Below, one piece after another: positions 8,492 to 59,047 of a stretch of DNA of 64,000 nucleotides (the first letter of the stretch is position 1; each line of letters opens with the position of its first letter). Source of the DNA: Candidatus Taylorbacteria bacterium RIFCSPHIGHO2_12_FULL_45_16 (GTDB taxonomy: Bacteria; Patescibacteriota; Minisyncoccia; Phycocordibacterales; PALSA-1337); the NCBI GenBank assembly GCA_001821055.1, contig MHRT01000007.1, positions 7,931 to 71,930 on the forward strand, given 5' to 3'. Both the position numbers and the translations under genes were made by a program. Below the pieces are notes generated by a model, which was not told where the DNA came from, did not search any database, and saw nothing but the letters and a program-made list of their open reading frames with translations.

Positions 8492-8526
<35 letters not shown>

Positions 8527-8699: not shown

Positions 8700-8985
8700 A
8701 GTTAGAAATATATTATGATACAATTATGTACATGGTAACAGACGGACCTTGGACAGTAATACTTATAGTCGACCTGTTTATCTTTTCATTTCTCTTTGGT
8801 GGTGGGCTGTATGTACGATCAACTCATGGAATACTAGCTATTAAAAGAGTGTTCGCCAAAATGCCACCAAAACAAAAACGTAATACAATGGACTATAAAC
8901 TTAGTCTCTTCCTGAAAATAGTTTTTGTTACCACTCTCCTCATAGCTATTGTAAGCATCATCGCACTAATAATTTTTTTCTGATT
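8700..8985 (-). other. AT-rich stem-enclosed intervening sequence in 23S domain IV (between GCCGTAACTTCGG... and ...GATACC/CAGCTAAAG)
   Basis: Flanked by the complementary arms CCAAAGTAGGGATTAGAGTTTAGAAAT and ATTTCTAACTTCTAACCCCTACTTTGG. The insert has no rRNA homology. Confidence 0.55.
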
Positions 8986-9743: not shown

Positions 9744-9816
9744 TGGCTCCCAGGAATGGGCTTGAACCATTAACCTTCGCATCGCTGCGTTGCTCTACCA
9801 ATTGAGCTACCTGGGT
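9744..9816 (-). ncRNA. tRNA-like element 2 inside the helix-45 IVS (73 nt, encoded CCA); anticodon arm replaced by a GNRA-capped hairpin
   Basis: Sequence ACCCAGG-TA-GCTC-AATTGGTA-GAGC-A-[CGCA-GCGA-TGCG]-AAGG-TTAATGG-TTCAAGC-CCATT-CCTGGGA-G-CCA. Confidence 0.4.
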
Positions 9817-9875
9817 AACCGATTCAAATTTACTTACTTCCGTAAAGTGACGACCTTTTCGTCACTCTGAAGAAG

Positions 9876-9951
9876 TGGTGCGAGTGGGGCGGTCTCGAAC
9901 CCCCGACCTCCGCCGTGTTGGGGCGGCGCTCTGCCTCTGAGCTACACTCGC
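9876..9951 (-). ncRNA. tRNA-like element 1 inside the helix-45 IVS (76 nt, encoded CCA); non-canonical anticodon loop
   Basis: Sequence GCGAGTG-TA-GCTC-AGAGGCA-GAGC-G-CCGCC-CCAACAC-GGCGG-AGGTC-GGGGG-TTCGAGA-CCGCC(C)-CACTCGC-A-CCA. The acceptor stem is a perfect 7 bp. Position 33 is C and the anticodon reads AAC. There is one mismatch or an extra nucleotide in the T-arm. Confidence 0.45.
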
Positions 9952-10879
9952 ACAATGATTTAAGTGTGTGGAAGGATGACGCATGCACGTTCCCTTCATC
10001 CCTATGAACAGGACAAGTTACGAACTTGCGGGATTTCCCATTTCCGGATCCGCCATTCCTGTTCTAATTAATACGGATCCATTCAAGAGGTGACTATGAA
10101 AATTGACCAATTTACGCGCATCAAATTCACCATCACCTTATGCGAGAGATCTGCACAATCCCCAGGAACACACAATCGTTGCCTCTATGAGCAGAATTTG
10201 AATCCGAATTCTCCGGAAACAAATTCCGCCCATAGAAGCCAAAGAACAAATTTTCCTTAATAAAGTACACAAGCCCTCAGTTTCGGTACAACATTTTAGC
10301 CCCGATTATCTGCGGCGCGAAATTTCTCGATGAGTGAGCTGTTACGCTATCTTCGAATGATGGCTGCTTCTAAGCCTACATCCTCATTGTTATAGAAATT
10401 TCACTACCTTAAGCGCACTTAATGTTGATTTAGGGACCTTAAATTGAGATCCGGGCTGTTTCCCTTTTGACCAATGGAGCTTAGCCCCCACAGTCTAACT
10501 GCCGGATAATTACCTTACGTATTCGGAGTTTGATAGGTTCAGGGATCTTTCGACCTGTCAGAACCTTCCAGTGCTCTACCCCGTAAGGGTACATCCGACG
10601 CGAACCCAAAAGTTCTTTCGGAGAGAACCAGCTATTACCAGATTCGATTAGCTTATCACTCCTTACCACACGTCATCCGATAGTTTTGCACGGCTAACCG
10701 GTTCGGGCCTCCATCCTCCTTTCGGAGAACTTCACCCTGCGCGTGGCAAGCTCATCTGGCTTCGGGTCTTTAGCAAACTACGAGCGCCCTGTTCAGACTC
10801 GGTTTCCCTGTGACTCCGTCCTCGCGGACTTAGTCGAGCAGCTTGCTAAAACTCGTTGGCTCATTCTTCAATAGGCACG

Positions 10880-10980
10880 CCGTCACGGACAACACAAATT
10901 AAACAATTTAACTATTCAACAATTGAACTATTAATAATTGTTAAATGGTTCCTTTGTAGAATTATTTAATTTGTGTTGTC
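10880..10980 (-). other. Helix-25-region intervening sequence of 23S, an AT-rich hairpin carrying the four-helix-bundle cassette end motifs (ORF-less)
   Basis: Inverted arms GACAACACAAATTAAA / TTTAATTTGTGTTGTC enclose ttcaacaattgaactatt + aattgttaaatggttcctttgtagaatt. Confidence 0.55.
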
Positions 10981-11038
10981 CGCTCCGACTCCTTGTAGGC
11001 ATATGGTTTCAGATCTATTTCACCGCCCTTCCGGGCTG

Positions 11039-11078
<40 letters not shown>

Positions 11079-11494
11079 TAGAAAAATATTTAGACTTGCC
11101 AGTTAGTTCTGGCGGATTCCACCGAGCTTTTCGTGTCCCGGTGTACTTGAGAATCAAGACAAAGAAGATCTTTTATTTTCGCTTATGGGACTATCACCCG
11201 CTAGGGTCGAGCTTTCCAGCTCGTCAAGCTAATAAAAAATTTGATAACTTCTCTGCCAATTCTAAATAAATAGAATAGCACGTCTCAACCTCGCAACCCC
11301 CTACTCCGCTCGTTACTACGTAACGAGCTTCGAAGGGCAAGTTCCTTTATTTAGGGCCTGCCCTTCGTAGCTCATGCGTAGCAATGAGCGAAGTAGGGTT
11401 TAGTCTTCTCCGCGTTCGCTCGCCGCTACTGACGGAATGCATGTTTGTTTATTTTCCACCTGGTACTGAAATGTTTTACTTCCCAGGGTACGCT

Positions 11495-11686
11495 CCTGCT
11501 TAGATTTTTGGGTTCTTGACAAAAAGAATATAATTTGATACTATATCTAGTGAAGATTTACAAGGTTTCTTACCCTAAGACTTTCTGAAGCCTTCCGCTT
11601 CGACAAGTTCTTGGAAGTCACCCTTGAAGTTTTCACTAAGGCCCCCGTGGGCCTTTTTCTTTTTTGAACACAAAAATCTAAGCAGG
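11495..11686 (-). other. Helix-9 intervening sequence of 23S (~150 nt from the 5' end), closed by a 16-bp stem
   Basis: Arms CCTGCTTAGATTTTTG / CAAAAATCTAAGCAGG. The insert has no rRNA homology. Confidence 0.55.
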
Positions 11687-12240
11687 TCTCCAGGTTTTAC
11701 CTGAAGGGGTTTCCCCATTCGGACATCTTCGGATCAAAGGTTGCTCGGCACCTCCCCGAAGCGTATCGCCGCCACGCCACGTCCTTCATCGCTTTTTCTA
11801 GCCAAGGCATCCACCATACGCCCTTTAAATTTCCTATTAGGAAATTTAAAAACCGTTTTCACCCTTCGAAGCTCCTTTTTAGGAGCGAAGTAGGGTTTGT
11901 CACGCCATAGCCATTTTTCAATGGCGACGGCGGACTATTACTTATTTACCTACATGGTATCTGTCATATGCTCGACCCGAGCACATAACAAACCGGTTCG
12001 AAATGATTCTACTCGAATCACCTGAACCCCTTATAATTTGAGATATGTAATTTTCAAGATTCATTCGTCCTGCATTGTCCTCCGAAGCTTTCCTGACCTC
12101 CGAAGCTTTAGCGTAGGAGGTAGCGAAGGAGGAAAAGAAAAAACCGCTTCGGCGGTTACAAGCTAAGCTCTATTACTAGAGTTTGGCTATGGCCGCTTTA
12201 ATATTCGGTTAATCTTTGTATTCATATCTGAGTACAAGTA

Positions 12241-29532: not shown

Positions 29533-29980
29533 AATTCTACAAAGGAACTATTGAACTATTTGCTAACGCCTCTCTTCAAAATAAATGACCTGAAATTTGA
29601 AAGCTGAGTTGACACAGTTTCAATCTCATAACGAACCTGGGTCAACTCAGATACAGGCACATGATTATTATCCTCTATGATATATAGAATAGATCTTACC
29701 TCACCAGCTGAACCCTTGGCCACGTTTAGAAAATATGCGAATTCTTTGTTTGTGTCTCTTTCAAATCCTTCCGAGATATTTAACATAATAGAATAGCTGG
29801 CACGTTTCAATTGATCAGACAAAGAAAAATCCCTTCGCAGTTTTTCGTTTCTGCTCAATAAATCGTATATGTCCTTAACTACCCGTCTAGCATCTTGCCA
29901 AACGGGTAGTTCCTCGAATCTCTTATAAACCATTTTGTTTAATTGTTAAATGGTTAAATGGTTCCTTAGTAGAATTGCTG
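29533..29980 (-). mobile_element. ~450-nt cassette bounded by ~25-nt inverted repeats (CAATTCTAC[A/T]AAGGAAC...ATTGAAC) that encloses the four-helix-bundle gene
   Basis: Left end caattctacaaaggaactattgaactatt. Right end aattgttaaatggttaaatggttccttagtagaattg. It lies between convergent efp and rpsR. Confidence 0.55.
29556..29933 (-). CDS. Four-helix-bundle protein (23S rRNA intervening-sequence protein / Avd-like family)
   Basis: ELPVWQDARRVVKDIYDLLSR...FSLSDQLKRASYSIMLNISEGFERDTNKEFAYFLNVAKGSAGEVRSILYII matches the family consensus. Confidence 0.8.
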   Translation of the reverse strand: MVYKRFEELPVWQDARRVVKDIYDLLSRNEKLRRDFSLSDQLKRASYSIMLNISEGFERDTNKEFAYFLNVAKGSAGEVRSILYIIEDNNHVPVSELTQVRYEIETVSTQLSNFRSFILKRGVSK

Positions 29981-31512: not shown

Positions 31513-32049
31513 CTACTGCCTCACCCTTATTGCCCGCTCCACATTACGAGCGCTTGACGATGGTCCACCCGACACGCAGTCTATATTATAGCCACGGGCT
31601 TCAAAGATTTTCCTCAGATTACCGCTGGAGTCATAACCAACCCAAATCTTCAGTAGCGCGCATCCGCTCTGTCCAAATGAAATCGGGATGCCTTTGTTAT
31701 TATTATAAGAGTCTATTGAATAAAATGGCGTGATGAATGTGTCTGAAAACTCGCTTGGAACAAAATCTATTTTTTGAAACAGGTTTCCCGTGACAGTGAA
31801 ACTTCCACATCCAATTGTCGCCGGCGAAGAGGTCGCGCCGTTCCAACCGGAGCCGGAAACAGCGCATTCAATCGCGCTATCGGCATTATAGAACGAATAC
31901 ATTGAATCCCTAGCCGCGGCCGAAAGTATGTATTGCTTCTTGGCGATACCTGTCACGAATGCCGCCACGCCAAGAACAAGCGAGGAGACCAAGACCGCGA
32001 ATAGAAGTGTGTAGCCGGAATGTTTGTTTTTTTTGTTCATAGTAATCAA
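31513..32049 (-). CDS. Pilin-like protein (hydrophobic N-terminal helix; atypical prepilin motif GYTLL)
   Basis: MNKKNKHSGYTLLFAVLVSSLVLGVAAFV. Adjacent to three canonical prepilin-type genes. Confidence 0.45.
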   Translation of the reverse strand: MITMNKKNKHSGYTLLFAVLVSSLVLGVAAFVTGIAKKQYILSAAARDSMYSFYNADSAIECAVSGSGWNGATSSPATIGCGSFTVTGNLFQKIDFVPSEFSDTFITPFYSIDSYNNNKGIPISFGQSGCALLKIWVGYDSSGNLRKIFEARGYNIDCVSGGPSSSARNVERAIRVRQ

Positions 32050-32720
32050 AGCATTGAATCGGTCATTATATTGGTCAACCTTATTTCATTTGGTATGTTC
32101 CCGTCTTTCCATGTGACCACGACTGTGACCTGCACTTCATCTCGCCGGCCATTTATTTCTGTGATATAAAGATAACGAGAAAAGATAGTTGGGCCTTCAA
32201 CGTCCTCATTATAGAATGAACCCTTGTTTACATAACCGGTATTTTTTAGGATTTCAAAGTCATATTTATTATATAGATAACAATCGACAGAAGAACTATT
32301 CGGACCCGAAGATGGATCGCATGACTCGACGACGGTCCTCATGCGTTTTTCTAATCTATCCTCGAGAGTAAGGGTAGGTGTATCAATAATCTTGTAAGTA
32401 ATAAAACAAGGGGTCGTATTTCTACATGTGTCAAAAATAGCGATTACTTCACCTGACGAAAGAGTAAAAAAGAGGTCTTCAAAAGTGTACAAGTTCGGAA
32501 GATTGAATTTGTTATTCTTTGTTTCCTTTATCAATTCCATAGCTTCTTGTGCCAAGAAAGATGCCGTCATTTGGTTTTTTGCATACAAAGCCGCCGTCAG
32601 GCTCTTGTTTGCCGCAACCAAGGGACCGGCAATGGCAATCATGAGCACGGTGATTGCCACCAAAGTCTCAACGATAGTAAAACCTCCGTCTTTGTCCTTG
32701 AATTGTTTATTATTGATCAT
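32046..32720 (-). CDS. Type IV pilin / pseudopilin-like protein (prepilin-type N-terminal methylation domain)
   Basis: GGFTIVETLVAITVLMIAIAGPL. Confidence 0.7.
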   Translation of the reverse strand: MINNKQFKDKDGGFTIVETLVAITVLMIAIAGPLVAANKSLTAALYAKNQMTASFLAQEAMELIKETKNNKFNLPNLYTFEDLFFTLSSGEVIAIFDTCRNTTPCFITYKIIDTPTLTLEDRLEKRMRTVVESCDPSSGPNSSSVDCYLYNKYDFEILKNTGYVNKGSFYNEDVEGPTIFSRYLYITEINGRRDEVQVTVVVTWKDGNIPNEIRLTNIMTDSML

Positions 32721-32748
32721 GATTGATTCTAAATGAGAAGTACTATAA

Positions 32749-33384
32749 CTATTGTTTGACTCTCTGTGTTATGGAAGTCTGCACATCAAAATAAGTCTTT
32801 TCTTTTTCATCCACGCCGGCATAGCCGATCAGACGAACAAGGATACGCGGATAAGGAAGGGCGGTTCCATTTTCTTCTTGAGACATTACAGCAAGACGAT
32901 AGTCGGTAATCACAACATTGGACGAGATAACCGGCAAAAAACCATTCGAATTATTCTGGAGCAAATTTATGTTATCGGCGCACAAGTTTTGTTGAGCCTT
33001 CATAAGTTGATAGCCATCGGTCGGGTCACCATAAAAGCGGTAAGCATAGACCAGACGACATTGGTCACCTGACGCTGGAGTTCTTGATGATTCAAAAAAT
33101 ATACCAGAGTTCCTACCCAAATTACATTTATTTACCGTCAAGCCCGATGAGCCATTATAGTTGAAGTTGCCATCTATGACACAGTGGTAACTGGTCCCGA
33201 CCCTCAATTCACGTGACATTGACTCAAAGGCAAAATTCAGATTGGTAAATGCCTCCTGGATGGCCTGGGCCTTGTGGTTGGCGGAGATGATTCTGACCAA
33301 AGCGCCCAGAGCCACGACCGCCACCACGGAAAATATGCCGAGAGCGACAATCATTTCTATCATAGTAAAACCGCTCTTCCCCAT
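32749..33384 (-). CDS. Type IV pilin / pseudopilin-like protein (start set at MGKSGFTMIE)
   Basis: GFTMIEMIVALGIFSVVAVVALGAL. Confidence 0.7.
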   Translation of the reverse strand: MGKSGFTMIEMIVALGIFSVVAVVALGALVRIISANHKAQAIQEAFTNLNFAFESMSRELRVGTSYHCVIDGNFNYNGSSGLTVNKCNLGRNSGIFFESSRTPASGDQCRLVYAYRFYGDPTDGYQLMKAQQNLCADNINLLQNNSNGFLPVISSNVVITDYRLAVMSQEENGTALPYPRILVRLIGYAGVDEKEKTYFDVQTSITQRVKQ

Positions 33385-33437
33385 GAAAAAACTGGAGCGT
33401 ATCGGTATATGGATCTTTACTTTTTTATTTTTCATTG

Positions 33438-43180: not shown

Positions 43181-43208
43181 GCTTTTACCGAGGTGGAACC
43201 TCAGTAAG
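43181..43208 (+). repeat. Partial copy of the intergenic repeat family (gcttttaccgaggtggaacctc); it supplies the last six codons and stop of ileS
   Basis: Matches the 3' part of copies 2 and 3. The ileS C-terminus TEVPPR* is encoded within it. Confidence 0.55.
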
Positions 43209-46200
43209 AGTTACTTTAAACTCAACATCCCCTGTCACCACTGGTTCTCCAACCACACTCCCAAATCTAACTTCAGAAATAGTGCACGCCGCCTTCACTT
43301 GTTTTTCATTATCCTCAACAAATTTCCGTCCAGCGCCATTGGTATCCAAAATAAGCACAGCTTTGTCATTCATACTCAATCCTTTTTCTTTACGCAGATC
43401 CTGAATGGCACGGATAAGTTCGCGGGTCATACCCTCCTCTTTGAGTGTGGGGGTGATGGTCGTATCCAATTCGACATCTTTCTCGATTGTAACTCCAAAG
43501 ACGACCTCCTTCACATTCACTTCATCCTTGATCAGTCCCACAAAATTATCCGCCAATGACTTTGATTTTTGATTTTTAACTTTTAACTTGCTCAAGGGCT
43601 GTCTGATATTGATCTTGGCCGCCATGCGCGCTTCCAGGCCTTTTGAACAAAGAGTGCGGACCGTCTCCATGTTGGCGATTAGATCCGAGTCAATTTTCTC
43701 CGCCGCCGGCCATGTTTCAAGATGCACACTCTCCAATCCTCCACCGACTTCTTGATACAAATAATCAGCGAAGAATGGTGAAAACGGCGCCATGATTTTT
43801 GCCAAAGTAATAAGCACATATCGCGTGGTCAAAATAGCCATTTCTTTGTCAACTAAATCGCTTCCCTTGAACCGATCACGCGAGCGACGGATATACCATT
43901 GCGACAAATCACCGACAAAGTCCCGAATTGAACGAGTTGGTTCTTGAAATGTGTAAGCATCCAATCCTCTAGTCACAATCTCTGTGATCTGATTGAGTCG
44001 GGTTATTATCCAGCAATCAAGGATATTGACACTAACCTTTATCCCTCCGCTTCTCTGCTTCTTTTCTCCCCCATACATCTTGTAAAACGACAATACATTC
44101 CCCGCTAGATTGAAGACTTTCTTGACTATTTCATCTACTGTTTTCTCCTCAAAATTCTTTGAGTCACCGGGCTGATTGACCGAATACATCCAGTAGCGCA
44201 GGGCGTCAGCTCCATATTTATCCATCATCTCCCAAGGAGAGATGACATTACCAACCGACTTGGACATTTTTTTGCCATGGGCATCTAGGATATGGCCCAA
44301 ACAGATGACATTTTTGAATGCTTTACCCTTGCCCATGAGTATGCCGACTGCGTGCAATGTATAAAACCAACCACGCGTCTGATCTATGGCTTCGGAGATG
44401 AAGTCTGCTGGGTAGGCTAGATCTTGTTTTTCGGAAAAAAAACGGCTGAATGTATTTCCTCCTTTTACAAATGGGTAATGGTCCTGCGCGAACGGCATAG
44501 ATCCAGAATCAAACCAGACGTCCATGACTTCTTTGACACGCGACATCGTGCCGCCACAGGCACAAGACAATTTAACTTCGTCGATATGCGGGCGATGTAG
44601 ATCAAGCTCGTATTCGGCGTTGTGCGGAATCACCGAAAAATCAACCAGACGAATCTCTGAATTGTTTATGTATTGGCTTTTTTCCAATTCGATGGAGCAG
44701 ACGCGGTCAAGACCCTTGGCAGAGGAGAGCAACATCATGGCCGGTGTCGCATGAGTAATGATGAGTATCGTCTTGTTAACATATTTTCCGTCAATTTCAT
44801 AGAGAAAATCCCCGGTGCGTTTTTTGACATCGCCGTATCTTTCGGCGCCAGGTGGTACATGTTCGAAGCGAGACTCAAACGGAAATGTTTCAGACAAATC
44901 CTTGACTTTCTTGCCATCATAGTCGCCAAAATCAAGTTCATTCAGTCGTTCGTCGATAATGACCTTATCATCTGAAAAACCGAGCGCCTCTTGAATAATG
45001 GCCGCAGTCCGGCGCGCTCGCAAAAACGAGGAGTGATAGATGAGATCAATGCCTTTGCCTTTGAGAGAGATAGCTGTTTTATTTACATCTTCTTCGCCGA
45101 CAGAAGTGAGATCAAACAGTTCACGGTCTTGGGAATTTAAGATTCCTTCAGTATTATTTTCCGCTTCCCCGTGGCGCATAATATGATAGGTATTTCGCGA
45201 CTTCTGGGCAATCTCCTGCACCGAACCAACAACTTTACTCTTTTGACAAGTACCACAGATCCAAACAGGCAATGGCGTGCCCCAATATCGTTCGCGGGAA
45301 ATAGCCCAGTCTTTGATCTCACGAAGCCATTCGCCAAATCTGCCATCCTTGATATATGCCGGTTCCCAGTGAATACCTTCGTTTTCTTTGATTAGTTCCT
45401 TTCGTAAAGAAGACATTCTGATGTACCAAGAGTCGCGAGCAAAGTAGATTAGAGAAGTTTTACAGCGCCAACAAAATGGATAGCTATGCTGGTGCTTTTC
45501 TTTGTGAAATAGAAGGCTACCGTCCGGGCGATTGGCTAGATCCTTTATTATCTCAACATCGGTGGCCTCATCTCTGACGAATTTTCCCGCCAAAAACCCA
45601 GCCACCTTTTTGAAAGTTCCATCTTCATTGACCAAATGATATCTTGGCAAACCTACTTTGGTCCCAAGTTCAAAATCGTCCTGACCGTACATGACGGCCG
45701 TGTGTACGATACCAGTGCCGTCCGTAGTTGTGACGAAATCAGCGGCATATACTTTGTAAGCATTCGAAAGTTTTTCCTTTTCAGCACCGGAGATAGAATC
45801 TTGTAGAAAGGAGTAAAGAGGTTCATATTCAAGACCGATAAGTTCTTTCCCTTTTATTGTTTCAAGAATTTTGGCGTCTTTGAATCGTTCCCCAAGGACA
45901 CTTGTGCGATCCTTAGCAAGAACATAGTATTCCAAATCCAAGGTTGGACTTTGCACAGCCACTTGTACGTACTCAATGTTCGGATTCACCGCCAGGGCGA
46001 CATTCCCCGGCAATGTCCACGGTGTGGTTGTCCAAGCCAATAAATACACTTCTTTACTGTCAGATGTTTTCGGAAAAATCTTCTCAATGTTTGTGATTCG
46101 AAACTTCACTGTCACAGCCAAATCTTTCACATCCTGGTAACCCTGCGCCAATTCATGCGAAGACAGCCCCGTTCCGCAACGCGGACACCAAGGCACAACC

Positions 46201-46747
46201 TTGTAATCTTTGTACAAGAGTTTCTTCTCGTCAATCGTCTTCACGATATTCCAGAGAGACTCAATATATGAAGACTTATAAGTGATGTACGGATCCTTTA
46301 AATCAACCCAATATCCCATCCGGTTAGTGAAATCAGCCCACTCATGTACATGTTTCCAGACACTTTCCTTGCATTTTTCGTTGAACGCGCCAATGCCGTA
46401 GGCTTCTATCTCTTTCTTGGATTTCAGGCCCAACTCTTTTTCAACCTGCAACTCAACCGGCAGACCATGAGTATCCCAGCCACCTTTGCGCCTCACATGA
46501 AAACCACACATTGTTTTGTAACGCGGAATAGCATCCTTGAAAGCTCGGGCTTCAAGATGGTGAATGCCCGGAAGTCCATTGGCCGTCGGTGGACCTTCAA
46601 AAAATACGAACTCTTTGCCGCCCTCGGTCTTTTTAAGCGACTTCTCAAAAATCCCTCTCTCTTTCCAGAAAGTCAAGATCTTCTCTTCACGCTCGGCGTG
46701 GGGAGATTTGGTTTGGTTATTTTTTTGTTGATTATTTAATTCAGCCA
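43185..46747 (-). CDS. ileS: Isoleucyl-tRNA synthetase with a nested histidine-phosphatase (PGM/SixA-like) domain (start set at MAELNNQQ)
   Basis: HIGH-like GIHHLEA, CP1 WCPRCGTGLS, WAISRERYWGTPLPVW, zinc knuckle WICGTCQ...SCACGG, DVWFDSGSMPF and KMSKS are all present. A ~200-aa insert sits between the two halves of the zinc knuckle. Confidence 0.9.
44700..45190 (-). other. Histidine phosphatase superfamily (branch 1, PGM/SixA/CobC-like) domain nested in ileS
   Basis: YHIMRHGEAENN (RHG catalytic His), SSFLRARRTAAII, RLNELDFGDYDG, PPGAERYGDVKKR, ILIITHATPAMML (second His). Confidence 0.8.
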
Positions 46748-46783
46748 TAATGTCCACACAAATCAATTGGTTCCAACAGAATA

Positions 46784-48610
46784 TCACATCCTCTTCGGCA
46801 CTTTTATCCCCAACAGCCACAAACCATCCGTCATTGTTATAAGGAATGCTTGCGTCAGATTCAGGCGATATGAAGTCAGCGGATCATTTTCGACAATAAT
46901 CTTATTAGTCGCATAGTAGACGTTGAAAGCCCCGGCCAGAGTGATCAAATAATTGGCGACATGTTGTGGTGCGTATTCCATCCTGGCGTGTTCAACAATA
47001 TCCGGAAATCTTGATATTAATTTTTCTAATAATGTAACCGACTCTGGAAGTATCCCAACAAGGTCGGGCCTTGGGATGATCTGCGCCTGACTTTCAGTTT
47101 GCGAATTTTGATTATTTCCTTCTTTGTTTCTTTGCTTGTCTTTCGATACTTTAGCATAGGAGGACTTTTTTCCTTTTTCCAATACTGCTCCCGCCCTCAC
47201 CGCCGCGTATTGCAAATAAGGCCCGGAATCCCCTTCAAATGAGATAGACGCCGCTGAATCAAAAATAACATCACTGCCGATGGTTTGGCGTAGAATCGTG
47301 TATTTTATCGCCCCGACCGCCACAATATCGGAGATTTCCTCTTTTTCAGCCGGACTCAATTCGCGATCGGAGATTTTATCCATCACCAAAGATTTGATCT
47401 CGCCAAGCAATGATTCAGCTGAAATAACATTGCCTTTCCGCGAAGCCATCTTCCCCGAAGCGAAACGAAGCATGCCGTGTGAAATATGTTTTGTTTTGGT
47501 GAATATGTTTTGGTCAATCAGTGAGAATGCTTTCAAAAGGACTTTGAAATAATCATTTTGTTCATTGGCTGTAATGATTATCGATTCAGTCAGATCGGGA
47601 TATTTTTTGAATTTTTCGATATTCAAACCGATCTCTTTGGCCTCATAGGTGGGCAGTCCCTGCGAAGTGATGAAGACGCGGGTATGCAGTCCATAATCCT
47701 CTCCTTTGAAGATTACGGCTCCTTCACTTTCGGTGAATACGCCTTTCTTGAGAAACTCACGGACGACCTTGATTCCATTGTCAGCAACCTCACTTTCAAA
47801 AAAGAATTCATTGAACTTGGTACCGAGGCTGGCGTAAATAATATCAAAATATTCCAGGCTCCATTTTCTACCCTGGACATATATTTCATTAATATCTTTA
47901 TCCGATTTTTCAAAGATTTTCTTGTTTATCACCGCGATTTCTTTTTGAACCGCCTCATCATCGTCAAATTTTGCCCCAGAAACATACATCTCCCCAAGCC
48001 ATTTGACTTTTTCCGTAACAGAACCGAGATTTTCCCCACGCTTCTCATTTTTGCTTCTTTCCTTTTCTTTTTGTATCGCCCAAATCGTCTTGGCCACATG
48101 CAAACCCACATCACCTTGATAACAGGCGCGGATGACCTCCGCACCGGAGCCTTCAGTCAACCGAGAAATCGACTCGCCGATTGCATTTGACATCAGATGC
48201 CCAATATGAAAAGCCTTGAATGGATTTGGATCAGTATACTCAACCATCACTTTTTTGGAGGTCCGACCTCCAGATCTGTGGATCCGACCCACAGATAGAG
48301 CCGTGGCAACAATCTCTTCCACGAAAACTTTATCCTTGATTTTAAAATTGATAAATCCGGGACCATCAACAGAAATCGATTCGACAAAGCTTAATTTCTC
48401 GCCCAAATATTTTTTTAGTTCGGTAATTATTTTCTCCGCCAGAATTTTCGGTGCCATGTCGAGCTGTTTGGCATAAATCATCGCCACATTGCAGGAAAAA
48501 TCACCATGTGCTGGGTTTTCGGGATATTCCAGCTTGAAAGATGGCATGTCGATGCCCAATCCGACCAAAATCTTATCCACAGCTTGTCCCAGTTCGACTT
48601 TCATATTCAT
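46784..48610 (-). CDS. argS: Arginyl-tRNA synthetase (start set at MNMKV)
   Basis: HIGH motif PFKAFHIGHL, an N-terminal Arg_tRNA_synt_N-like domain, and a C-terminal DALR anticodon-binding region. Confidence 0.9.
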   Translation of the reverse strand: MNMKVELGQAVDKILVGLGIDMPSFKLEYPENPAHGDFSCNVAMIYAKQLDMAPKILAEKIITELKKYLGEKLSFVESISVDGPGFINFKIKDKVFVEEIVATALSVGRIHRSGGRTSKKVMVEYTDPNPFKAFHIGHLMSNAIGESISRLTEGSGAEVIRACYQGDVGLHVAKTIWAIQKEKERSKNEKRGENLGSVTEKVKWLGEMYVSGAKFDDDEAVQKEIAVINKKIFEKSDKDINEIYVQGRKWSLEYFDIIYASLGTKFNEFFFESEVADNGIKVVREFLKKGVFTESEGAVIFKGEDYGLHTRVFITSQGLPTYEAKEIGLNIEKFKKYPDLTESIIITANEQNDYFKVLLKAFSLIDQNIFTKTKHISHGMLRFASGKMASRKGNVISAESLLGEIKSLVMDKISDRELSPAEKEEISDIVAVGAIKYTILRQTIGSDVIFDSAASISFEGDSGPYLQYAAVRAGAVLEKGKKSSYAKVSKDKQRNKEGNNQNSQTESQAQIIPRPDLVGILPESVTLLEKLISRFPDIVEHARMEYAPQHVANYLITLAGAFNVYYATNKIIVENDPLTSYRLNLTQAFLITMTDGLWLLGIKVPKRM

Positions 48611-48972: not shown

Positions 48973-48975
48973 TTA
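48936..48975 (+). terminator. Rho-independent terminator (GGTGCGG-loop-CCGCACC + U-run)
   Basis: 7-bp GC stem followed by CCTTTTATTTAT. Confidence 0.6.
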
Positions 48976-50229
48976 TACTGGGTATGATTGCGCCTCCCTC
49001 AAAATCTCATCGATCTTTTTCGCGATTATCTTGAAATCTTTTTCTCTCTTCCCTCTCGTCGTTTCAGCCGCGGTACCCAGCCGAATCCCCGATGGATCAG
49101 TTGGTGGTCTTGTGTCAAATGGGATGGCGTTTTTATTCACAATAATACCCATCTTTTCAAGCTTGTCACTGGCGATTTTTCCTGGAACGGCTCCGGCGCC
49201 TTTTGAGTTCTTTTGACCACTCATCCAAGTATCAATGAGAATCAGATGGGAATCCGTTCCTCCGGAAATAACCTTCCAGCCCATGTTAGCCAATCCATCA
49301 GCCAAAACTTTCGCGTTTTTATTGATTTGGGCGGCGTATCTTCTGAATGCCGGAGTGGAAGCCTCTTTGAGAGCAACAGCGACCGCCGCAATCTGATTGA
49401 CATGCGGACCGCCTTGCAATCCTGGGAAGACTGCCTTGTCAATTTTCTTGTGCCAATCAAGCAACTTACCCGAAGCGTCTTTTTTGTCAGATCGGACAAA
49501 AATCAAAGCCGCCCGAGGACCACGAAGAGTCTTGTGCACGGTAGTCGTCACGACATCGGCATATTCAAACGGTGAAAGATATGCCCGACCAGCCACCAAT
49601 CCAGCAATGTGGGACATGTCAACCATCAAGATGGCTCCGCAAGCATCGGCAATCTCCCGCATTTTTTTCCAATCTATAATTCTGGGATAGGCGGTATAAC
49701 CCGAGACAATGATGGCCGGTTTCTCGCGCAAAGCAATCTCTTTTAAATTGGCGTAATCCAAAACTTCAGTATCTTTATCAACGCCGTAAGGAACTTGAAT
49801 CCAAAACTTTCCCGTGGCTGAGACTTTGTGACCATGGGTAAGATGCCCACCTTGATCCAGAGACATGCCCATAATCTTCTGTTGGACCAGCCTGCCCTCT
49901 CTGACGATTGGTGGCACAAGAGCCAAATACACAGCGGTGTTGGCTGGTGAGCCAGAAAGTGACTGGACATTGACATGCCATTTTTCCGGCTTGAGACCAA
50001 AGAGTTTAAGCGCCCGAGCCTTGCAAAGATCTTCGATTTTGTCCACATTCTCATTACCACCATAATAACGGAATCTTGAATACCCTTCGGCGTATTTGTT
50101 GGTCAGTTCTGAACCTAATGCCTCAAGCACATCTTTTGAAACATAATTTTCCGAAGCAATCAGATTGATAACTTTTTTCTGGCGTTTCTTTTCGGCTGAA
50201 ATAAGTTTTTTTATTTGAATATCTTTCAT
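48973..50229 (-). CDS. glyA: Serine hydroxymethyltransferase
   Basis: ...LIASENYVS..., the PLP-Lys region VVTTTVHKTLRGPR, and typical length. Confidence 0.9.
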   Translation of the reverse strand: MKDIQIKKLISAEKKRQKKVINLIASENYVSKDVLEALGSELTNKYAEGYSRFRYYGGNENVDKIEDLCKARALKLFGLKPEKWHVNVQSLSGSPANTAVYLALVPPIVREGRLVQQKIMGMSLDQGGHLTHGHKVSATGKFWIQVPYGVDKDTEVLDYANLKEIALREKPAIIVSGYTAYPRIIDWKKMREIADACGAILMVDMSHIAGLVAGRAYLSPFEYADVVTTTVHKTLRGPRAALIFVRSDKKDASGKLLDWHKKIDKAVFPGLQGGPHVNQIAAVAVALKEASTPAFRRYAAQINKNAKVLADGLANMGWKVISGGTDSHLILIDTWMSGQKNSKGAGAVPGKIASDKLEKMGIIVNKNAIPFDTRPPTDPSGIRLGTAAETTRGKREKDFKIIAKKIDEILREAQSYPV

Positions 50230-50908: not shown

Positions 50909-51562
50909 TCAAATCCTTTTCCTAATCTCCGCGATAAAATCTTTTTTCACCTCTTCCAGCGGCCTATTTGCGTCAATCACGATGTGTGGAACTTTGGCAA
51001 AAAATTTTAAATACCCCTGACGCACTTTTTCGTGAAATTTTATTTCCCTGTTATCAAAATGATCATATTGTTTTCCTTGAAGAAGCGACTGGTTGCGCGA
51101 ATGTGCTCGTCGCACTCCTTCTTTTGAATCAACATCGACGAAAATGTAAAGGTCCGGTTTGATCGCCAGGCGTTCACGGAGATCCCAAAAAATTTTTGCA
51201 AGACTGTCGCCAGATTGCGCCCAAACATTATAGGCATAAGAAGAAGCGTCGTAACGATCGGCGATTACGGGCTTGCCCGTTTCTATGGCTGGTATAATAG
51301 CGTTCTTGGTATTATCAAAACGCGCCGCGAACATCAGACACAGGGTTGTCTCCACGGGCGCGTCTTTGGCTAGTGGATTTTTCAAAGTAGCCTCGCGTAT
51401 CGCTTCCGCGTAAGGAGATCCTCCCGGTTCTCGAGTCGTGAAAATCGCGTCGCCCAACTCGTCTTTGAGCACAATCAGCAATGAAGACTTGCCAGAGCCC
51501 TCTCCGCCTTCAATGACAATGAACGGCGGTCTTTTCTTTTTTGAAATAAATGGGGAAATCAT
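50909..51562 (-). CDS. tmk: Thymidylate kinase
   Basis: P-loop IEGGEGSGKSS, DRY-like motif, and a lid region. Confidence 0.9.
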   Translation of the reverse strand: MISPFISKKKRPPFIVIEGGEGSGKSSLLIVLKDELGDAIFTTREPGGSPYAEAIREATLKNPLAKDAPVETTLCLMFAARFDNTKNAIIPAIETGKPVIADRYDASSYAYNVWAQSGDSLAKIFWDLRERLAIKPDLYIFVDVDSKEGVRRAHSRNQSLLQGKQYDHFDNREIKFHEKVRQGYLKFFAKVPHIVIDANRPLEEVKKDFIAEIRKRI

Positions 51563-51661: not shown

Positions 51662-52162
51662 TTATTTGTGCGAATCTGTACCAGCCCCTCTCTGAAACTG
51701 TCCTTTCGCCCCTTCAACCAAGTATACATCCTTTATCCCAGCCACGATCATGGCATCCCAGCAAGACTTGCAACACCACCAGTGCCCCCAATGATACAGA
51801 TCCGCGCCTGTAATGTCACCGTAAGCTTTTTGGGCCGCTTTAATGGCACGAGGTTCTGAGTGCAATCTTGGAGAAGCACAGCCTCGACAGATCCAGTACT
51901 TCTGTCCAGTCGGAATTTTGAGGAATCTGCGAACGCAAAAAACTTCCCGGTGAAATTTCATCAATCTCTTGCTCTTCAGAGCCGATTGATTGGCCGCTGA
52001 GCCGATAATTTTTCCACTCACGACAATAACGGCACCCGTTGGCCAAAGCCTATCTGTCGACCCCTCCAACGCCATCCTTTTGGCCGCCGCCATAAAAAAA
52101 TTCGCGATCGGCACATAAATAAATTTTCTCCCCTCTGGAATATATGGATAGTCATTTAGCAT
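51662..52162 (-). CDS. dCMP deaminase-like (cytidine/deoxycytidylate deaminase fold) with an extra Cys cluster
   Basis: HSE...CCKSC zinc motif, additional CVRR...CRGC cluster, divergent from thyA. Confidence 0.6.
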   Translation of the reverse strand: MLNDYPYIPEGRKFIYVPIANFFMAAAKRMALEGSTDRLWPTGAVIVVSGKIIGSAANQSALKSKRLMKFHREVFCVRRFLKIPTGQKYWICRGCASPRLHSEPRAIKAAQKAYGDITGADLYHWGHWWCCKSCWDAMIVAGIKDVYLVEGAKGQFQRGAGTDSHK

Positions 52163-52230
52163 TTGCGTATGTCAATTGGCAAACCGCAAGGTTGTCCAAT
52201 CGTCTGTTGATTATATATAATAAAGAGACT

Positions 52231-53091
52231 ATGACCAAGTTTGACGAGATATACCAGAACATGATCAAAAAAATCATGACGGAAGGGATCGATGAACTCA
52301 ACAAAAGCAAACAAGCTGGAAGTGAGCGTGCAACATATTATACAAGGGCAATGCCTGGGATACATTTTTCCACTGACATAGAAAATGACGGTTTCCCTCT
52401 CTTGACTTTACGAAAAATTCCAATCAAAGCGCCGGTCGCCGAACAGGCTTGGTTCATTTTGGGGTTGAGAAAACCAGAAGATTTCCTAAGGAACTACACA
52501 AAAATTTGGGATGACTTCACAAATCCTGGCGATGTAGTCACAGTAGCTTATGGATATAGGTGGAGAAAACATTTTGGTCGCGACCAGCTTCAACTTTTGA
52601 TTGATTTGCTAAAAAATGAGCCCGGATCAAGACATGGAGTGGTTGTCGCTTGGGATCCATCCCAAGATGGTCTGTCTTTACAAAAAAAGAAGAATGTCCC
52701 ATGTCCATATACTTTCACGGCCAACATCATAGGTGGCAGGCTTCATCTGCATCTCATGATTCGTTCAAATGATGTTATTCTCGGTTTGCCTTTTGATGTT
52801 CTGGGTTTTGCCCTCCTCCAATGTCTTCTTGCCCAAGAATTAGGAGTTAAGCCCGGAATATACAGCCACTCTATTTCCAATGCCCATATATATGACTCCC
52901 ATTACCGGGCGGCGGAAGAATTGACCAAGAGACAAAACGACCACAAGAAAATTGTCTTGAATCTACCTGAAAATGCCTTCCGAAAAATAGAGCAAAGAAA
53001 ATACGAGGTTGTGGACGCCATAATAAATAACCTCACGGAACAGTATCATCCATCGGAAGCTATTACAGGTATCAAGATTGTCCCCTATTAA
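52231..53091 (+). CDS. thyA: Thymidylate synthase (ThyA) family enzyme with Asp at the E. coli-Asn177 position (start at ATG 52231)
   Basis: ...EQAWFILG..., SRHGVVVAWDP, catalytic Cys in NVPCPY, MIRSNDVILGLPFDV, HSISNAHIY. It aligns with E. coli [16 protein letters not shown]. Confidence 0.8.
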   Translation: MTKFDEIYQNMIKKIMTEGIDELNKSKQAGSERATYYTRAMPGIHFSTDIENDGFPLLTLRKIPIKAPVAEQAWFILGLRKPEDFLRNYTKIWDDFTNPGDVVTVAYGYRWRKHFGRDQLQLLIDLLKNEPGSRHGVVVAWDPSQDGLSLQKKKNVPCPYTFTANIIGGRLHLHLMIRSNDVILGLPFDVLGFALLQCLLAQELGVKPGIYSHSISNAHIYDSHYRAAEELTKRQNDHKKIVLNLPENAFRKIEQRKYEVVDAIINNLTEQYHPSEAITGIKIVPY

Positions 53092-53178: not shown

Positions 53179-53820
53179 TTGTTCAACTACATGTCCATCA
53201 TCACCAAAAAAGACATACTTGGACGCGTCCAATCCGGATCGCTTTCTTTCAAACCAGTCCTTGATCAATTCCAGCTTCAGGAACATTCGGTAGACTTGCG
53301 TCTCGGTTTTACCTTCATGATTCCCAAAATGTGGCATGTGACTCCACGCGGGCGTGAATCTCTGGACATTACCCACTTCGACAAACGCAATCATGAGTAT
53401 TTTGAGGTTATTGAGCTTGAACAAGGACAGTATTTCGAGCTTTTGCCGCAAGAATATATCCTCGTCTCAACTCTTGAATCCATAAAAATGCCAACCGATC
53501 TGATGGGCGTGCTATATCCGCGTTCATCAACAAATCGCAAAGGACTATCTTTGGACCTGACCGGAATTATTGACGCCGGATATGAAGGTCAGCTCGTCCT
53601 TCCCATTCGCAACAACACCCGTTCACAAGCGATACGCCTTTATCCCGGTGAACGACTCTGCCAGGTTGTGTTTGAGGAGCTCAAATCAGAAGTCACGCCA
53701 CGTCCCAGCAAGTACCATCAAAAAGACATCATAGAGGGTGTATTGCCAGAGAAAAAGACTGAGGTTGATTTGATTGCCCGCGGAGACATCAAAAGTCTTA
53801 AAGAAAATTTCAAGATTTAG
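53179..53820 (+). CDS. dcd: dCTP deaminase (dUTPase superfamily)
   Basis: ...GIIDAGYEGQLVLPIRNNTRSQAIRLYPGERLCQVVFEEL. Confidence 0.85.
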   Translation: MFNYMSIITKKDILGRVQSGSLSFKPVLDQFQLQEHSVDLRLGFTFMIPKMWHVTPRGRESLDITHFDKRNHEYFEVIELEQGQYFELLPQEYILVSTLESIKMPTDLMGVLYPRSSTNRKGLSLDLTGIIDAGYEGQLVLPIRNNTRSQAIRLYPGERLCQVVFEELKSEVTPRPSKYHQKDIIEGVLPEKKTEVDLIARGDIKSLKENFKI

Positions 53821-53896: not shown

Positions 53897-54409
53897 ATGA
53901 CCAAATGTTTCATCATCGCCGCCATGACGGCCGACGGTTACATAGCCAAAGAAGTCAAGCATGCGGCTTTTTGGACCAGTAAGGAAGACAAAAAGCGTTT
54001 CGTGGAACTGACCAAGCAGGCCGGGGTGGTGATTATGGGTCTGAATACTTTTCATACTCTTCCTCGTCCGTTAAAAGAGCGCATCAATATCGTCTATTCA
54101 CCGGATAAAATAGAGGGCATTGAGACTACGGCCAAGGAACCAAAAGAACTACTTGACGAGTTAGACGGCCGAGGTATAAAGGAGGTCGCGATATGTGGAG
54201 GATCACAAATTTACACTATGTTCATGAAGGCCGGAGTCGTCGACCGGCTGTATTTGACAATTGAACCACTGATCTTCGGCAACGGTCTCCGTCTTTTTAG
54301 GGAAGATATGCACTACCATCTGGAATTGAAAAGCGTTGTCCAAGCGGAACACGGCGCTTTACTCTTGGAATACAAAGTTGATTATTCAGGAAGTATGAAG
54401 CTCAATTGA
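53897..54409 (+). CDS. folA: Dihydrofolate reductase family protein
   Basis: MTKCFIIAAMTADGYIAKE...VIMGLNTF...IVYS, of DHFR-like length and motifs. Confidence 0.75.
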   Translation: MTKCFIIAAMTADGYIAKEVKHAAFWTSKEDKKRFVELTKQAGVVIMGLNTFHTLPRPLKERINIVYSPDKIEGIETTAKEPKELLDELDGRGIKEVAICGGSQIYTMFMKAGVVDRLYLTIEPLIFGNGLRLFREDMHYHLELKSVVQAEHGALLLEYKVDYSGSMKLN

Positions 54410-56716: not shown

Positions 56717-57550
56717 TCAGAGAGACGCGTCAATGATATTTTCAAATAAACCGAGAACCGTCATCGGACCGACGCCGCCTGGCACTGGACTAATCGCCGA
56801 AGCTATATCCTTTACGGCCTCAAAATCAACATCCCCTTTTAAACTGGCGTCGGGCATTTTGGATATGCCGATATCTATGACTATGGCACCTTTTTTGATA
56901 TGATCCGCGCCGATCAACCCCGGTTTGCCGACGGCCACAATGACAATATCGGCTTTTTTCGTTTCATCGGCCAGATTGACTGTCTTGCTGTGACAAACCA
57001 TCACTTCAGCTCCGTCATTTCTACACAATACGGCTATTGGAGCCCCAACCAATCTGGAACGACCGACGACTGCCACTCTTTTCCCTTTGAGGGAAATCAG
57101 ATAATACGCGAGTAGTTCTTTCACCCCGCGCGCCGTTGCTGGAACTATGGCAAAGGTATCGCCTGACAGTAATTTATCGTAATTGGTTGAAGTCAATCCA
57201 TCAACATCCTTCGTTGGATCAATAGCTTCTATGATTGTCGCCCGATCAATATCGGCCGGTAGAGGCAACTGGATGATGATGCCTTGAATGGAATGATCCA
57301 CGTTGAGGTTTTTAACTGCAGCAAGAACTTCCGGTTGTGAAATTGTCTCTTTGAAATTAGTGTATTTTATATCCACGCCAATTTTTTTTGCAAAGGCCAT
57401 TTTAGCCTTGATATAGGCCGTAGAATCGGATCTATCGCCAATTTGTATGATGGCGAGCTGCGGAATATAAGAAAGTTTTTTGACTTTTTCAACAAGTCTG
57501 GACACGCGCGCGGCGCGGGCGACAAGACCTGAAAGAATAGTTGCTGACAT
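56717..57550 (-). CDS. folD: Bifunctional methylene-THF dehydrogenase / methenyl-THF cyclohydrolase
   Basis: ...IQLPLP..., GRSRLVGAPIAVLC, PGGVGPMTVLGLFENI. Confidence 0.9.
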   Translation of the reverse strand: MSATILSGLVARAARVSRLVEKVKKLSYIPQLAIIQIGDRSDSTAYIKAKMAFAKKIGVDIKYTNFKETISQPEVLAAVKNLNVDHSIQGIIIQLPLPADIDRATIIEAIDPTKDVDGLTSTNYDKLLSGDTFAIVPATARGVKELLAYYLISLKGKRVAVVGRSRLVGAPIAVLCRNDGAEVMVCHSKTVNLADETKKADIVIVAVGKPGLIGADHIKKGAIVIDIGISKMPDASLKGDVDFEAVKDIASAISPVPGGVGPMTVLGLFENIIDASL

Positions 57551-57640: not shown

Positions 57641-59047
57641 CTAAAATAGAAGAAGCTTTCTGCTCCAAAAAAGACCAGTGAACAACACATAAAATCCAAC
57701 CACCCACCAACCGGAAAAAGCTGGCAATGTCACCGAGGCAAACGGAATATTGGCGAACAATTCAACCAGATACAACTCATAAGTAAGCAACAAATGCGCT
57801 ATCCAACCAAAAATATGAGCGCAGACCATGGATAAAAAGCCGCTTGCACCAGTCAAAAACACGACCAACATGGTAATTGGAATTATCGGCAACACCAAAA
57901 TATTCACAACTAGACCGATGATGGAAATCTGACCCATCATATAGAGGATAAAGGGTGAGACAAATATTTGCGTGGCAATGGTGGAGGCCACGATGCCGCG
58001 CAAGCCAAATTTTTCTGGAATAAATGACAGTTTACTTTCAATGGGACTCGCGAGGAGAATCAAACCAAGCGTCGCCAAAAATGAAAGTTGAAACGATGGA
58101 TCGTGCAACAAGATCATCGGATTTTGAATAAGCATTATTAGACCGGCAAAAACAAGTGCGCGAGTCACATCATAATCACGACGAATAAGGTCGGCCGACA
58201 GAGCGATACCGGCCATAAAACACGAGCGCACGACCGTAGCTCCACCGCCAACCATGATTCCAAATAAACCGATGCCAATACCGCCGACTGTAATGCCCCA
58301 AACGCGTGGCATAAACGAAAATAACCGGCGCATGGCATCGCCGACGATGGTAATATTGAAACCTGATAAAACAACGATGTGGATCAGGCCGACAACGCGA
58401 AAATCATCAAGCAAATCCGCGCCAAGAGCGTTCTTTTCACCGACGACAAGACCAGCGGCCAAAGCGGCATGCGGTTCTCCAAGCACTTCTTCCAAATGAG
58501 AGACAAATCTCCGCTTCAAATGGAAAAGTGCGCCAAGAATATAGTGGTTTGCCCGCACCGTAGACATGACATTTTCCATGCTTTCAGCCGGAGAACCAAT
58601 CGGGAGATTTTCAACTTTCGCACTTTTTATTTCATAAAAAATATTGTCTTTAGCCAAATATCCGATATAATCAAACACGCGCCCGGCATCACTCCTAAAA
58701 TTATAGGGCTCTGAAACTTTTCCGGAAAATGAAATCCTGTCGTCAAACACAAAACGTGGATGAAGTCTGGTCTTCATCCGAATCAAGACTGAGGATATGC
58801 AAGGACTATTCATGGACGCAGTGATAGCGCCTGTACTGGTTGTCGCCAAGAATAATTCATCCACTAACACCGAGAGTATCTGTCCGCCCTCTTTCCTTTC
58901 CGGCTCTTGAACAACCGTCCCGACACCCGTGACTAGTTGCCTATCGCACGCTCCGATGTCCTTCGCGTCTTGTTGTAGCGAAAATAACACGCGTATCACC
59001 GCCAATCCAATAAATAATGACCAAAAAATGGCAACTCCCCGTTTCAT
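57641..59047 (-). CDS. comEC: ComEC/Rec2-family DNA-uptake channel protein
   Basis: Polytopic membrane protein with a competence domain ...VVGLIHIVVLSGFNITIVGDA... Confidence 0.8.
   Translation of the reverse strand: MKRGVAIFWSLFIGLAVIRVLFSLQQDAKDIGACDRQLVTGVGTVVQEPERKEGGQILSVLVDELFLATTSTGAITASMNSPCISSVLIRMKTRLHPRFVFDDRISFSGKVSEPYNFRSDAGRVFDYIGYLAKDNIFYEIKSAKVENLPIGSPAESMENVMSTVRANHYILGALFHLKRRFVSHLEEVLGEPHAALAAGLVVGEKNALGADLLDDFRVVGLIHIVVLSGFNITIVGDAMRRLFSFMPRVWGITVGGIGIGLFGIMVGGGATVVRSCFMAGIALSADLIRRDYDVTRALVFAGLIMLIQNPMILLHDPSFQLSFLATLGLILLASPIESKLSFIPEKFGLRGIVASTIATQIFVSPFILYMMGQISIIGLVVNILVLPIIPITMLVVFLTGASGFLSMVCAHIFGWIAHLLLTYELYLVELFANIPFASVTLPAFSGWWVVGFYVLFTGLFWSRKLLLF

Follow-up and report, generated by a model that had tools for sequence, protein, structure and literature searches.

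The gene examined here, thyD, belongs to the thymidylate synthase (TS) family and lies in a 64,000-nucleotide stretch of Candidatus Taylorbacteria bacterium RIFCSPHIGHO2_12_FULL_45_16 (contig MHRT01000007.1, positions 7,931 to 71,930), hereafter the window. The window is core chromosome: it carries ftsW, rplJ/L, ftsK, recA, efp, ssb, rplK, nusG, comEC and several aminoacyl-tRNA synthetase genes, and no phage genes were found in its 64 kb. Around thyD the local order is glyA, tmk and a deaminase-like gene (deam) on the reverse strand, then the divergent thyD, a DCD-like gene (dcdL) and a DHFR-like gene (dhfrL) on the forward strand, followed by rplK, nusG and, farther away, folD, again on the reverse strand (Table 1). 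A first-pass annotation of the same DNA had reported a gene resembling deoxycytidine monophosphate (dCMP) deaminases divergent from thyD, a DHFR-family gene downstream, and tmk, glyA and folD in the wider cluster, and all of these are present. The thyD product has Asp at the position of Asn177 in E. coli ThyA. From its sequence we read it, with moderate confidence, as a dCMP C5-methyltransferase of the type found in phage Xp12, whose product, 5-methyl-dCMP, would be deaminated to thymidine monophosphate (dTMP), such that a phage module would serve as cellular housekeeping.

Aspartate at the base-specificity position of ThyD

The longest open reading frame (ORF) at thyD opens at 52144. We place the start at 52231 because homologs are 286 amino acids (aa) long and share a conserved N-terminus, MTKFDEIY. 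The product matches the Pfam profile Thymidylat_synt (PF00303) with an E-value of 1.6e-50 and 172 bits (cut-off 24.3). Its AlphaFold2 (AF2) model (predicted local distance difference test score (pLDDT) 83, predicted template modelling score (pTM) 0.85) has a full-length TS fold, and the top Foldseek matches of the model are full-length solved thymidylate synthases acting on deoxyuridine monophosphate (dUMP), with template modelling scores (TM) of ~0.75. In E. coli ThyA numbering, which we use below for positions such as 127, 143, 147, 169 and 177, the protein retains the TS residues R21, E58, W80, Y94, R126, C146, R166, S167, D169, H207 and Y209.

In HMMER alignments with solved thymidylate synthases, the segment RSNDVILGLPFDV of the query pairs without a gap with RSADIFLGVPFNI. 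A MAFFT alignment puts D189 in one column with N177 of E. coli ThyA and D179 of T4 gp42, the gp42 sequence used being identical to that in the T4 record. The first-pass assignment of Asp189 to the Asn177 position is thus borne out, with no offset, and the further deviations listed with it can be read in the protein as well: SRH (R134, H135), PCP (C158, P159) and WDP (D142). ThyD has Asn155 at position 143, Cys158 at 146, Pro159 at 147, Asp181 at 169 and His at 127, and the four features N177, L143, H147 and R127 of canonical TS enzymes are all replaced. Two marks of other cytosine-modifying relatives are also absent, namely the acidic residue that hydroxymethylases carry at 143 (Asp in T4, Asn155 here) and the D169N change of 5-hydroxy-dCMP synthases of the RB69/DLP3 type, position 169 being Asp in 120 of 120 homologs.

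Conservation and co-variation of active-site residues

Asp occupies position 177 in all 120 of the closest database homologs (68-100% identity), across which R21, E58, Y94, R126, C146, R166, D169, H207 and Y209 are likewise kept. At greater distance, among the 150 best cluster representatives drawn from a library of 1.8 billion proteins, about 120 have Asp177. The combination D177/N143/P147 is found in 89 of the 150 and the canonical combination N177/L143/H147 in 16; every Asn177 representative that was typed at 143 and 147 (16 of 16) has L143/H147. Overall, Asp177 co-varies with Asn143, Pro147 and Gln/His127. Because it is invariant in the 120 homologs and co-varies with Asn143 and Pro147, Asp189 is neither a chance substitution nor a sequence error.

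These positions are informative in characterised enzymes. In the natural ThyA-family enzymes listed in three papers, Asp accompanies a cytosine substrate and Asn a uracil substrate, and N-to-D mutants shift toward dCMP (PMC5175136, PMC8670742, PMC13326640). Residues 177 and 147 are those most strongly associated with cytosine-modified phage contigs (PMC8670742), while Leu versus Asp/Glu at 143 tracks a methyl versus a hydroxymethyl product and D169N marks the 5-hydroxy-dCMP synthases (PMC13326640). Engineered parallels are E. coli N177D and L. casei N229D TS, each shifted from dUMP methylation toward dCMP by replacement of this one Asn with Asp (cited in PMC8670742, PMC13326640). ThyD differs from them in its additional co-varying changes, Asn143, Pro147, His127 and Asp134. 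Removal of the His equivalent to H147 reportedly improved an engineered dCMP methylase in the 1997 work of Agarwalla et al.

Similarity to the TS homolog of phage Xp12

Judged from scores and identities, the nearest relative of ThyD among the reference enzymes compared by BLASTP is the TS homolog of phage Xp12 (181 bits, 38% identity), ahead of E. coli ThyA (102 bits, 28%) and T4 gp42 (38 bits, 22%). In a search of 50,697 phage records the top matches were all Xp12-like (Xp12, Bosa, DLP4, AXL_1, Mallos, ZQG1 and Achromobacter phage 83-24). ThyD and the TS homologs of Xp12 and ZQG1 are identical at K142, N143, V144, P145, C146 and P147 and at D169, D177, W80, F83 and Y94, and they have in common the motifs AYGYRWRxHFGRDQ and AWDPxxDGLxxQxxKNVPCP. 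Position 127 sets them apart, being His or Gln rather than Arg in the Patescibacteria enzymes.

Xp12 DNA contains 5-methylcytosine (5mC) in place of C, and the Xp12 TS homolog as well as 5 of 7 metagenomic Asp-type homologs tested made 5-methyldeoxycytidine (5mdC) in vivo (bioRxiv 10.1101/2024.12.05.627091). In both Xp12 and ZQG1 the gene order is a hydrolase or nucleoside triphosphate (NTP) pyrophosphohydrolase, the Asp-type TS, a dCMP deaminase and DHFR. In viromes, a deaminase lies within 3 kb of the TS gene in 70% of cytosine-modified contigs compared with 6% of unmodified ones, and these deaminases have been proposed to yield thymidine nucleotides from 5-methyl-C nucleotides (bioRxiv 10.1101/2024.12.05.627091). 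The Taylorbacteria island resembles the Xp12 module in that the TS gene has a CDA-fold deaminase gene and a homologous DHFR-like gene as neighbours and an NTP hydrolase lies near. It differs in being chromosomal, between argS/glyA/tmk and rplK/nusG, in an arrangement conserved across many Patescibacteria. Its deaminase is of a different family and divergently oriented, and its NTP hydrolase has the DCD fold, whereas those of the phages are annotated as a HAD-superfamily hydrolase or a nucleotide pyrophosphohydrolase.

Two other known systems were compared. With the canonical ThyA-FolA cycle (EC 2.1.1.45) the island has in common the fold, the catalytic Cys, the folate chemistry, a DHFR partner and the Tmk/GlyA/FolD context, but N177, H147, L143 and R127 are replaced here, in a protein with 28% identity to E. 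coli ThyA. T4 gp42 has Asp at the specificity position as well as the conserved Cys, Glu58, Tyr94 and Arg166; it differs in having Asp at 143, in being shorter and without the C-terminal tail, in its 22% identity, and in catalysing a reaction that needs no DHFR.

The next-nearest TS clusters (43-58% identity) sit on phage-like contigs. One of them, P0125, carries a terminase and has the order TS, one small ORF, dUTPase/DCD and dCMP deaminase. Two IMG/VR contigs, L091 (3300031521_000456) and L092 (3300025858_000007), carry a thyD that is 55-58% identical to the window gene together with genes for a DNA polymerase exonuclease subunit, a RecE-like exonuclease, an RNA ligase and a terminase. On L092 a deaminase homolog of the type found in the candidate phyla radiation (CPR) is directly upstream of thyD, and the divergent deam/thyD pair is seen again on contig L085. 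L091 and L092 may represent phages of Patescibacteria with the same module.

Conservation of the thymidylate island

When GTDB was scanned with one genome for each species, close ThyD relatives turned up in 231 of these species-representative genomes, and synteny was counted at the 80 loci listed from these matched genomes. The 80 loci belong to Taylor-, Adler-, Kaiser-, Colwell- and Doudnabacteria, to Paceibacterota and Parcubacteria, or to unclassified metagenome-assembled genomes. The divergent deaminase gene is a neighbour of thyD at all 80 loci, the DCD-like gene at 78, the DHFR-like gene at 66, glyA (detected by phmmer) at 63, tmk at 43 and folD at 38. The window holds no second TS-family gene and no ThyX gene, and thyD is the sole TS-family gene seen in the window and the 80 loci. 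Likewise, the ThyX motif RHRxxS...SxR gave just 2 matches, both spurious, in the window and the fetched loci of Patescibacteria and related bacteria (1.3 Mb).

The region between deam and thyD contains one sigma-70-like match per strand. In a promoter/terminator scan of the island, the count of promoter-like matches was no higher than in shuffled sequence.

Table 1. Coordinates of thyD, its key residues and the neighbouring genes, in positions of the window.
Feature	Coordinates	Strand	Basis
thyD, predicted Xp12-type dCMP C5-methyltransferase, ThyA fold, 286 aa	52231..53091	+	PF00303, AF2/Foldseek, BLASTP
Asp189 of ThyD, base-specificity residue	GAT 52795..52797	+	column of E. coli Asn177, T4 Asp179
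K154-N-V-P-C158-P159 strand of ThyD, with catalytic Cys; Asn at 143, Pro at 147	52690..52707	+	equivalent to E. coli 142-147 (A-L-A-P-C-H)
deam-thyD divergent intergenic region, 68 bp	52163..52230	.	sequence
deam, CDA-fold nucleotide deaminase, predicted 5-methyl-dCMP (or 5-methyl-dCTP) deaminase	51662..52162	-	Pfam dCMP_cyt_deam_1 4.4e-11
dcdL, DCD/dUTPase-fold, predicted deoxynucleoside triphosphate (dNTP) diphosphatase	53179..53820	+	Pfam DCD 4.1e-35
dhfrL, DHFR/RibD_C-like reductase, predicted dihydrofolate recycling	53897..54409	+	RibD_C 5.9e-19, DHFR_1 2.7e-17
tmk, thymidylate kinase	50909..51562	-	Pfam Thymidylate_kin 4.4e-33
glyA, serine hydroxymethyltransferase, source of 5,10-methylene-tetrahydrofolate	48973..50229	-	named from sequence and first-pass annotation
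folD, methylene-tetrahydrofolate dehydrogenase/cyclohydrolase, outer member of the island	56717..57550	-	ORF; homolog in 38/80 loci

A deaminase family of Patescibacteria

The first-pass description of deam as dCMP-deaminase-like holds for its motifs and its nearest relatives, and needs amending in that the protein is not an ordinary dCMP deaminase. The zinc and catalytic motifs H101-x-E103 and C131-x-x-C134 are invariant in the family. A search of the Protein Data Bank (PDB) with the single sequence returned nothing at E < 0.1. The family profile matched 4p9c (3.8e-7) and 2hvv (9.3e-7), with dCMP deaminases first, and the AF2 model (pLDDT 84) had as its best Foldseek matches the dCMP deaminases of cyanophage S-TIM5, human, T4 and PBCV-1; profile and fold searches taken together place those of S-TIM5, S. 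mutans, human, T4 and PBCV-1 first. On the other side, deam scores 24.6 bits against the ComEB/dCMP deaminase equivalog TIGR02571 and does not reach its cut-off of 219. Its family is small, with 428 clusters, and every named member comes from Patescibacteria. The sole match of deam in phage records was one unannotated faecal contig.

An additional invariant set of residues, H71/C76/C92/C95, could bind a second zinc. This His/Cys3 cluster is an extra of the Patescibacteria protein when it is set beside the mSCD proteins, the 5mC-selective deaminases of phage metagenomes, to which we liken it by description: those are viral genes of the dCMP-deaminase family that lie in cis with an Asp177 TS (bioRxiv 10.1101/2024.12.05.627091). 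Because most deam homologs are 157-158 aa long, the true start of deam may be a few codons downstream.

The DCD-like and DHFR-like neighbours

The gene after thyD had been taken for dcd, encoding a dCTP deaminase, and its product does pass the NCBIfam dCTP deaminase model TIGR02274 (118.7 bits versus a cut-off of 92.8). That name lacks support, since the position of the catalytic Glu138 of E. coli Dcd is Pro142 in dcdL (CCC, 53602-53604) and Pro in 78 of 78 syntenic homologs; the dCTP deaminases in the PDB (Mycobacterium tuberculosis, B. halodurans) have Glu aligned to this residue. A protein without the catalytic Glu would be unable to deaminate, and we predict that dcdL is a nucleotide diphosphatase rather than a deaminase. 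The label "dCTP deaminase" is probably wrong for the whole Patescibacteria dcdL family. The dcdL motifs PRSS, IDxGYxGQ and GERxCQ resemble those of dUTPases. Two candidate relatives or precedents were considered and set aside: T4 gp56 dCTPase does not align with dcdL (best BLASTP E = 0.25), and the SIRV dUTPase, considered as a possible earlier example of a DCD-type dUTPase lacking the Glu, keeps this residue. In five related genomes (loci L016, L033, L053, L064 and L082) an extra classical short dUTPase (VIDAGYRGE...KIAQ) is encoded on the reverse strand, 1-4 kb upstream of thyD, in addition to the dcdL gene.

The third gene of the forward-strand group, dhfrL, encodes a homolog of the Xp12-module DHFR (E = 7e-13).

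A possible route to dTMP by way of 5-methyl-dCMP

For thyD itself, the first-pass annotation had posed two readings: a divergent dUMP methylase, or a dCMP C5-modifying enzyme (methylase or hydroxymethylase) whose product might be deaminated to dTMP. The second is the one we favour, on account of D177, and it can be narrowed. A methyl product is favoured over a hydroxymethyl one because Asn143 is as in Xp12, because ThyD retains Trp80, Tyr94 and the C-terminal tail, because a DHFR-like gene is adjacent, and because the score is 181 bits against Xp12 and 38 against T4 gp42. The non-acidic residue at 143 argues against a hydroxymethylase of the T4 type, and the retention of D169 against a 5-hydroxylase.

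In the pathway that we propose, Asp189 would read N3 and N4 of cytosine, and ThyD, through the catalytic Cys158, would convert dCMP and 5,10-methylene-tetrahydrofolate (CH2-THF), the donor of both carbon and hydride, to 5-methyl-dCMP and dihydrofolate. The product of the divergently transcribed deam would then deaminate 5-methyl-dCMP to dTMP, and Tmk would phosphorylate dTMP to dTDP, while the DHFR-like protein, GlyA and FolD would regenerate CH2-THF. As a dNTP diphosphatase, dcdL might either supply dCMP from dCTP or remove 5-methyl-dCTP or dUTP. ThyD would occupy the place of the housekeeping thymidylate synthase in Taylorbacteria and their Patescibacteria relatives, and a dUMP-type synthase would be absent from the rest of the genome.

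Several observations weigh against this pathway. The specificity of ThyD is read from its residues and its 38% identity with the Xp12 protein, and in principle a protonated Asp could pair with uracil. Among the family models, NCBIfam TIGR03284, "thymidylate synthase", is passed by ThyD, narrowly (117.5 bits versus a cut-off of 108.35). The gene set of the island is also what the textbook dUMP pathway needs, and context alone does not discriminate between the two. No direct similarity of deam to the deaminases of Xp12 and ZQG1 was detected (pairwise E = 0.053; no match with a hidden Markov model (HMM) at E < 10). mSCD-B5, the 5mC-selective phage deaminase that has been studied in depth, works on triphosphates (5-methyl-dCTP) and on single-stranded DNA, not on 5-methyl-dCMP (bioRxiv 10.1101/2024.12.05.627091). 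The check for ThyX and canonical thyA is confined to 1.3 Mb of loci. Finally, a cell that makes 5-methyl-dCMP must either exclude it from its DNA or tolerate it there.

Alternative explanations

The alternative that survives best is that ThyD is a divergent synthase for dUMP, or for both dUMP and dCMP, in which Asp is tolerated, with deam converting dCMP to dUMP, dcdL acting as a dUTPase and dTMP arising by the classical pathway. We regard this as unlikely, though it draws on much of the same evidence. The island holds everything that the classical route requires, and thyD is the only TS-family gene seen at these loci. All other TS catalytic residues are kept and ThyD folds like full-length dUMP synthases, yet the similarity to Xp12 is far above that to any dUMP synthase, and Asp co-varies with Asn143, Pro147 and Gln/His127 across a large clade, the tested members of which make 5mdC. 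ThyD clears the cut-off of TIGR03284 and falls below those of the further NCBIfam thymidylate synthase equivalogs that it matches, namely TIGR03283 and six NF models (73-135 bits against cut-offs of 175-576). The dUTPase-like motifs of dcdL would suit the classical route, as would the dCMP deaminases that are the nearest solved relatives of deam; however, five loci have an extra classical Dut, so dcdL need not be a dUTPase. None of the natural Asp-type enzymes covered in PMC5175136, PMC8670742 and PMC13326640 is reported to use dUMP.

A second alternative retains the dCMP methylase and changes the fate of its product. As in Xp12, 5-methyl-dCMP would be phosphorylated and 5mC would replace much or all of the chromosomal C, with dcdL removing dCTP and deam converting part of the 5-methyl-dCTP/5-methyl-dCMP pool to thymidine nucleotides. 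The module indeed matches that of Xp12, where 5mC fully replaces C, in its NTP hydrolase, Asp-type TS, deaminase and DHFR. The characterised phage partner deaminase acts on 5-methyl-dCTP, which would suit this scheme, and phage-like contigs encode a thyD of 55-58% identity and a deam homolog. tmk is adjacent, but no dedicated 5-methyl-dCMP kinase was identified; the Glu-less, dUTPase-fold dcdL is a candidate dCTPase, but such an activity is speculation. The composition of the window (GC content 44.9%, CpG observed/expected 1.09) gives no sign of strong 5mC-deamination pressure, which is weak evidence against the scheme. To our knowledge, wholesale base replacement has been reported for no cell, and this too counts against it. 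Overall, we consider the scheme improbable. Its strongest form, in which most or all chromosomal C is 5mC in Taylor-, Adler-, Kaiser-, Colwell- and Doudnabacteria and their relatives, with a Glu-less dcdL clearing dCTP, is a long shot. Were it true, wholesale use of a non-canonical base would be seen in cells for the first time, and the base could mark self versus imported DNA in DNA-scavenging episymbionts, comEC being 4.5 kb away.

That ThyD makes another C5 product from dCMP, 5-hydroxymethyl-dCMP (T4-type) or 5-hydroxy-dCMP (RB69-type), is very improbable: such enzymes do have Asp177, and T4 gp42 likewise lacks His147, but 143 is Asn rather than Asp/Glu, 169 is Asp rather than Asn, identity to T4 gp42 is just 22%, the C-terminal tail and the DHFR neighbour fit reductive methylation, and the products would be of no evident use to the cell.

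Other features of the window

On the reverse strand, the segments 32046-33435 and 57641-59047 hold a pair of type IV pilin-like ORFs that carry N-terminal methylation motifs and the competence channel gene comEC, which is 4.5 kb from the thymidylate island. These fit DNA uptake and nucleotide scavenging.

The 23S rRNA gene (4954-11837, -) is split and expanded, with Rfam large subunit (LSU) matches at 8386-11837 (3.45 kb) and 4954-6776 (1.8 kb, model positions 2046-2912) and a LAGLIDADG endonuclease ORF (6963-7832) between the two parts. A 5S gene is present at 4676-4783, the 16S gene is not adjacent, and the rRNA genes look intron- or insertion-bearing and unlinked. Inside the 23S region, at 9876-9951 (-), Rfam (50.8 bits) and ARAGORN both detect a tRNA-Val whose anticodon, AAC, is unusual; it is the only tRNA of the 64 kb. 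An ORF at 29556-29933 (-), distant from the rRNA genes, matches the Pfam profile "23S rRNA-intervening sequence protein" (PF05635, 1.4e-29). In an isoleucyl-tRNA-synthetase-like ORF of 1211 aa (43185-46820, -), the catalytic domain is interrupted by a histidine phosphatase domain (His_Phos_1, residues 547-705).

Implications for thymidylate synthesis in Patescibacteria

Cellular de novo thymidylate synthesis is taught as the methylation of dUMP by ThyA or ThyX. The enzyme type discussed here and the TS-deaminase-DHFR module are already known from phages. In the papers searched we found no description of their use as a thymidylate island that is chromosomal and conserved throughout a bacterial lineage. 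The island has a deaminase family of its own and a DCD-like protein without the catalytic Glu. Our literature search also found no report that links CPR/Patescibacteria to Asp-type thymidylate synthases or to 5mC-rich DNA.

If the proposed pathway is correct, dTMP synthesis in a large bacterial lineage starts with the methylation of dCMP and deamination comes second, an order so far proposed only for phages that contain 5mC. Hundreds of CPR proteins labelled "thymidylate synthase", "dCTP deaminase" or "dCMP deaminase" would need new names, and the metabolic models built from these reduced genomes would change. The deam proteins would form a new family of candidate nucleotide deaminases selective for 5mC, enzymes of a kind that methylome sequencing already employs. 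The island also raises a testable question, namely whether the DNA of these cells is rich in 5mC. Under the same condition, a housekeeping pathway of the CPR would be linked to a DNA-modification module of phages.

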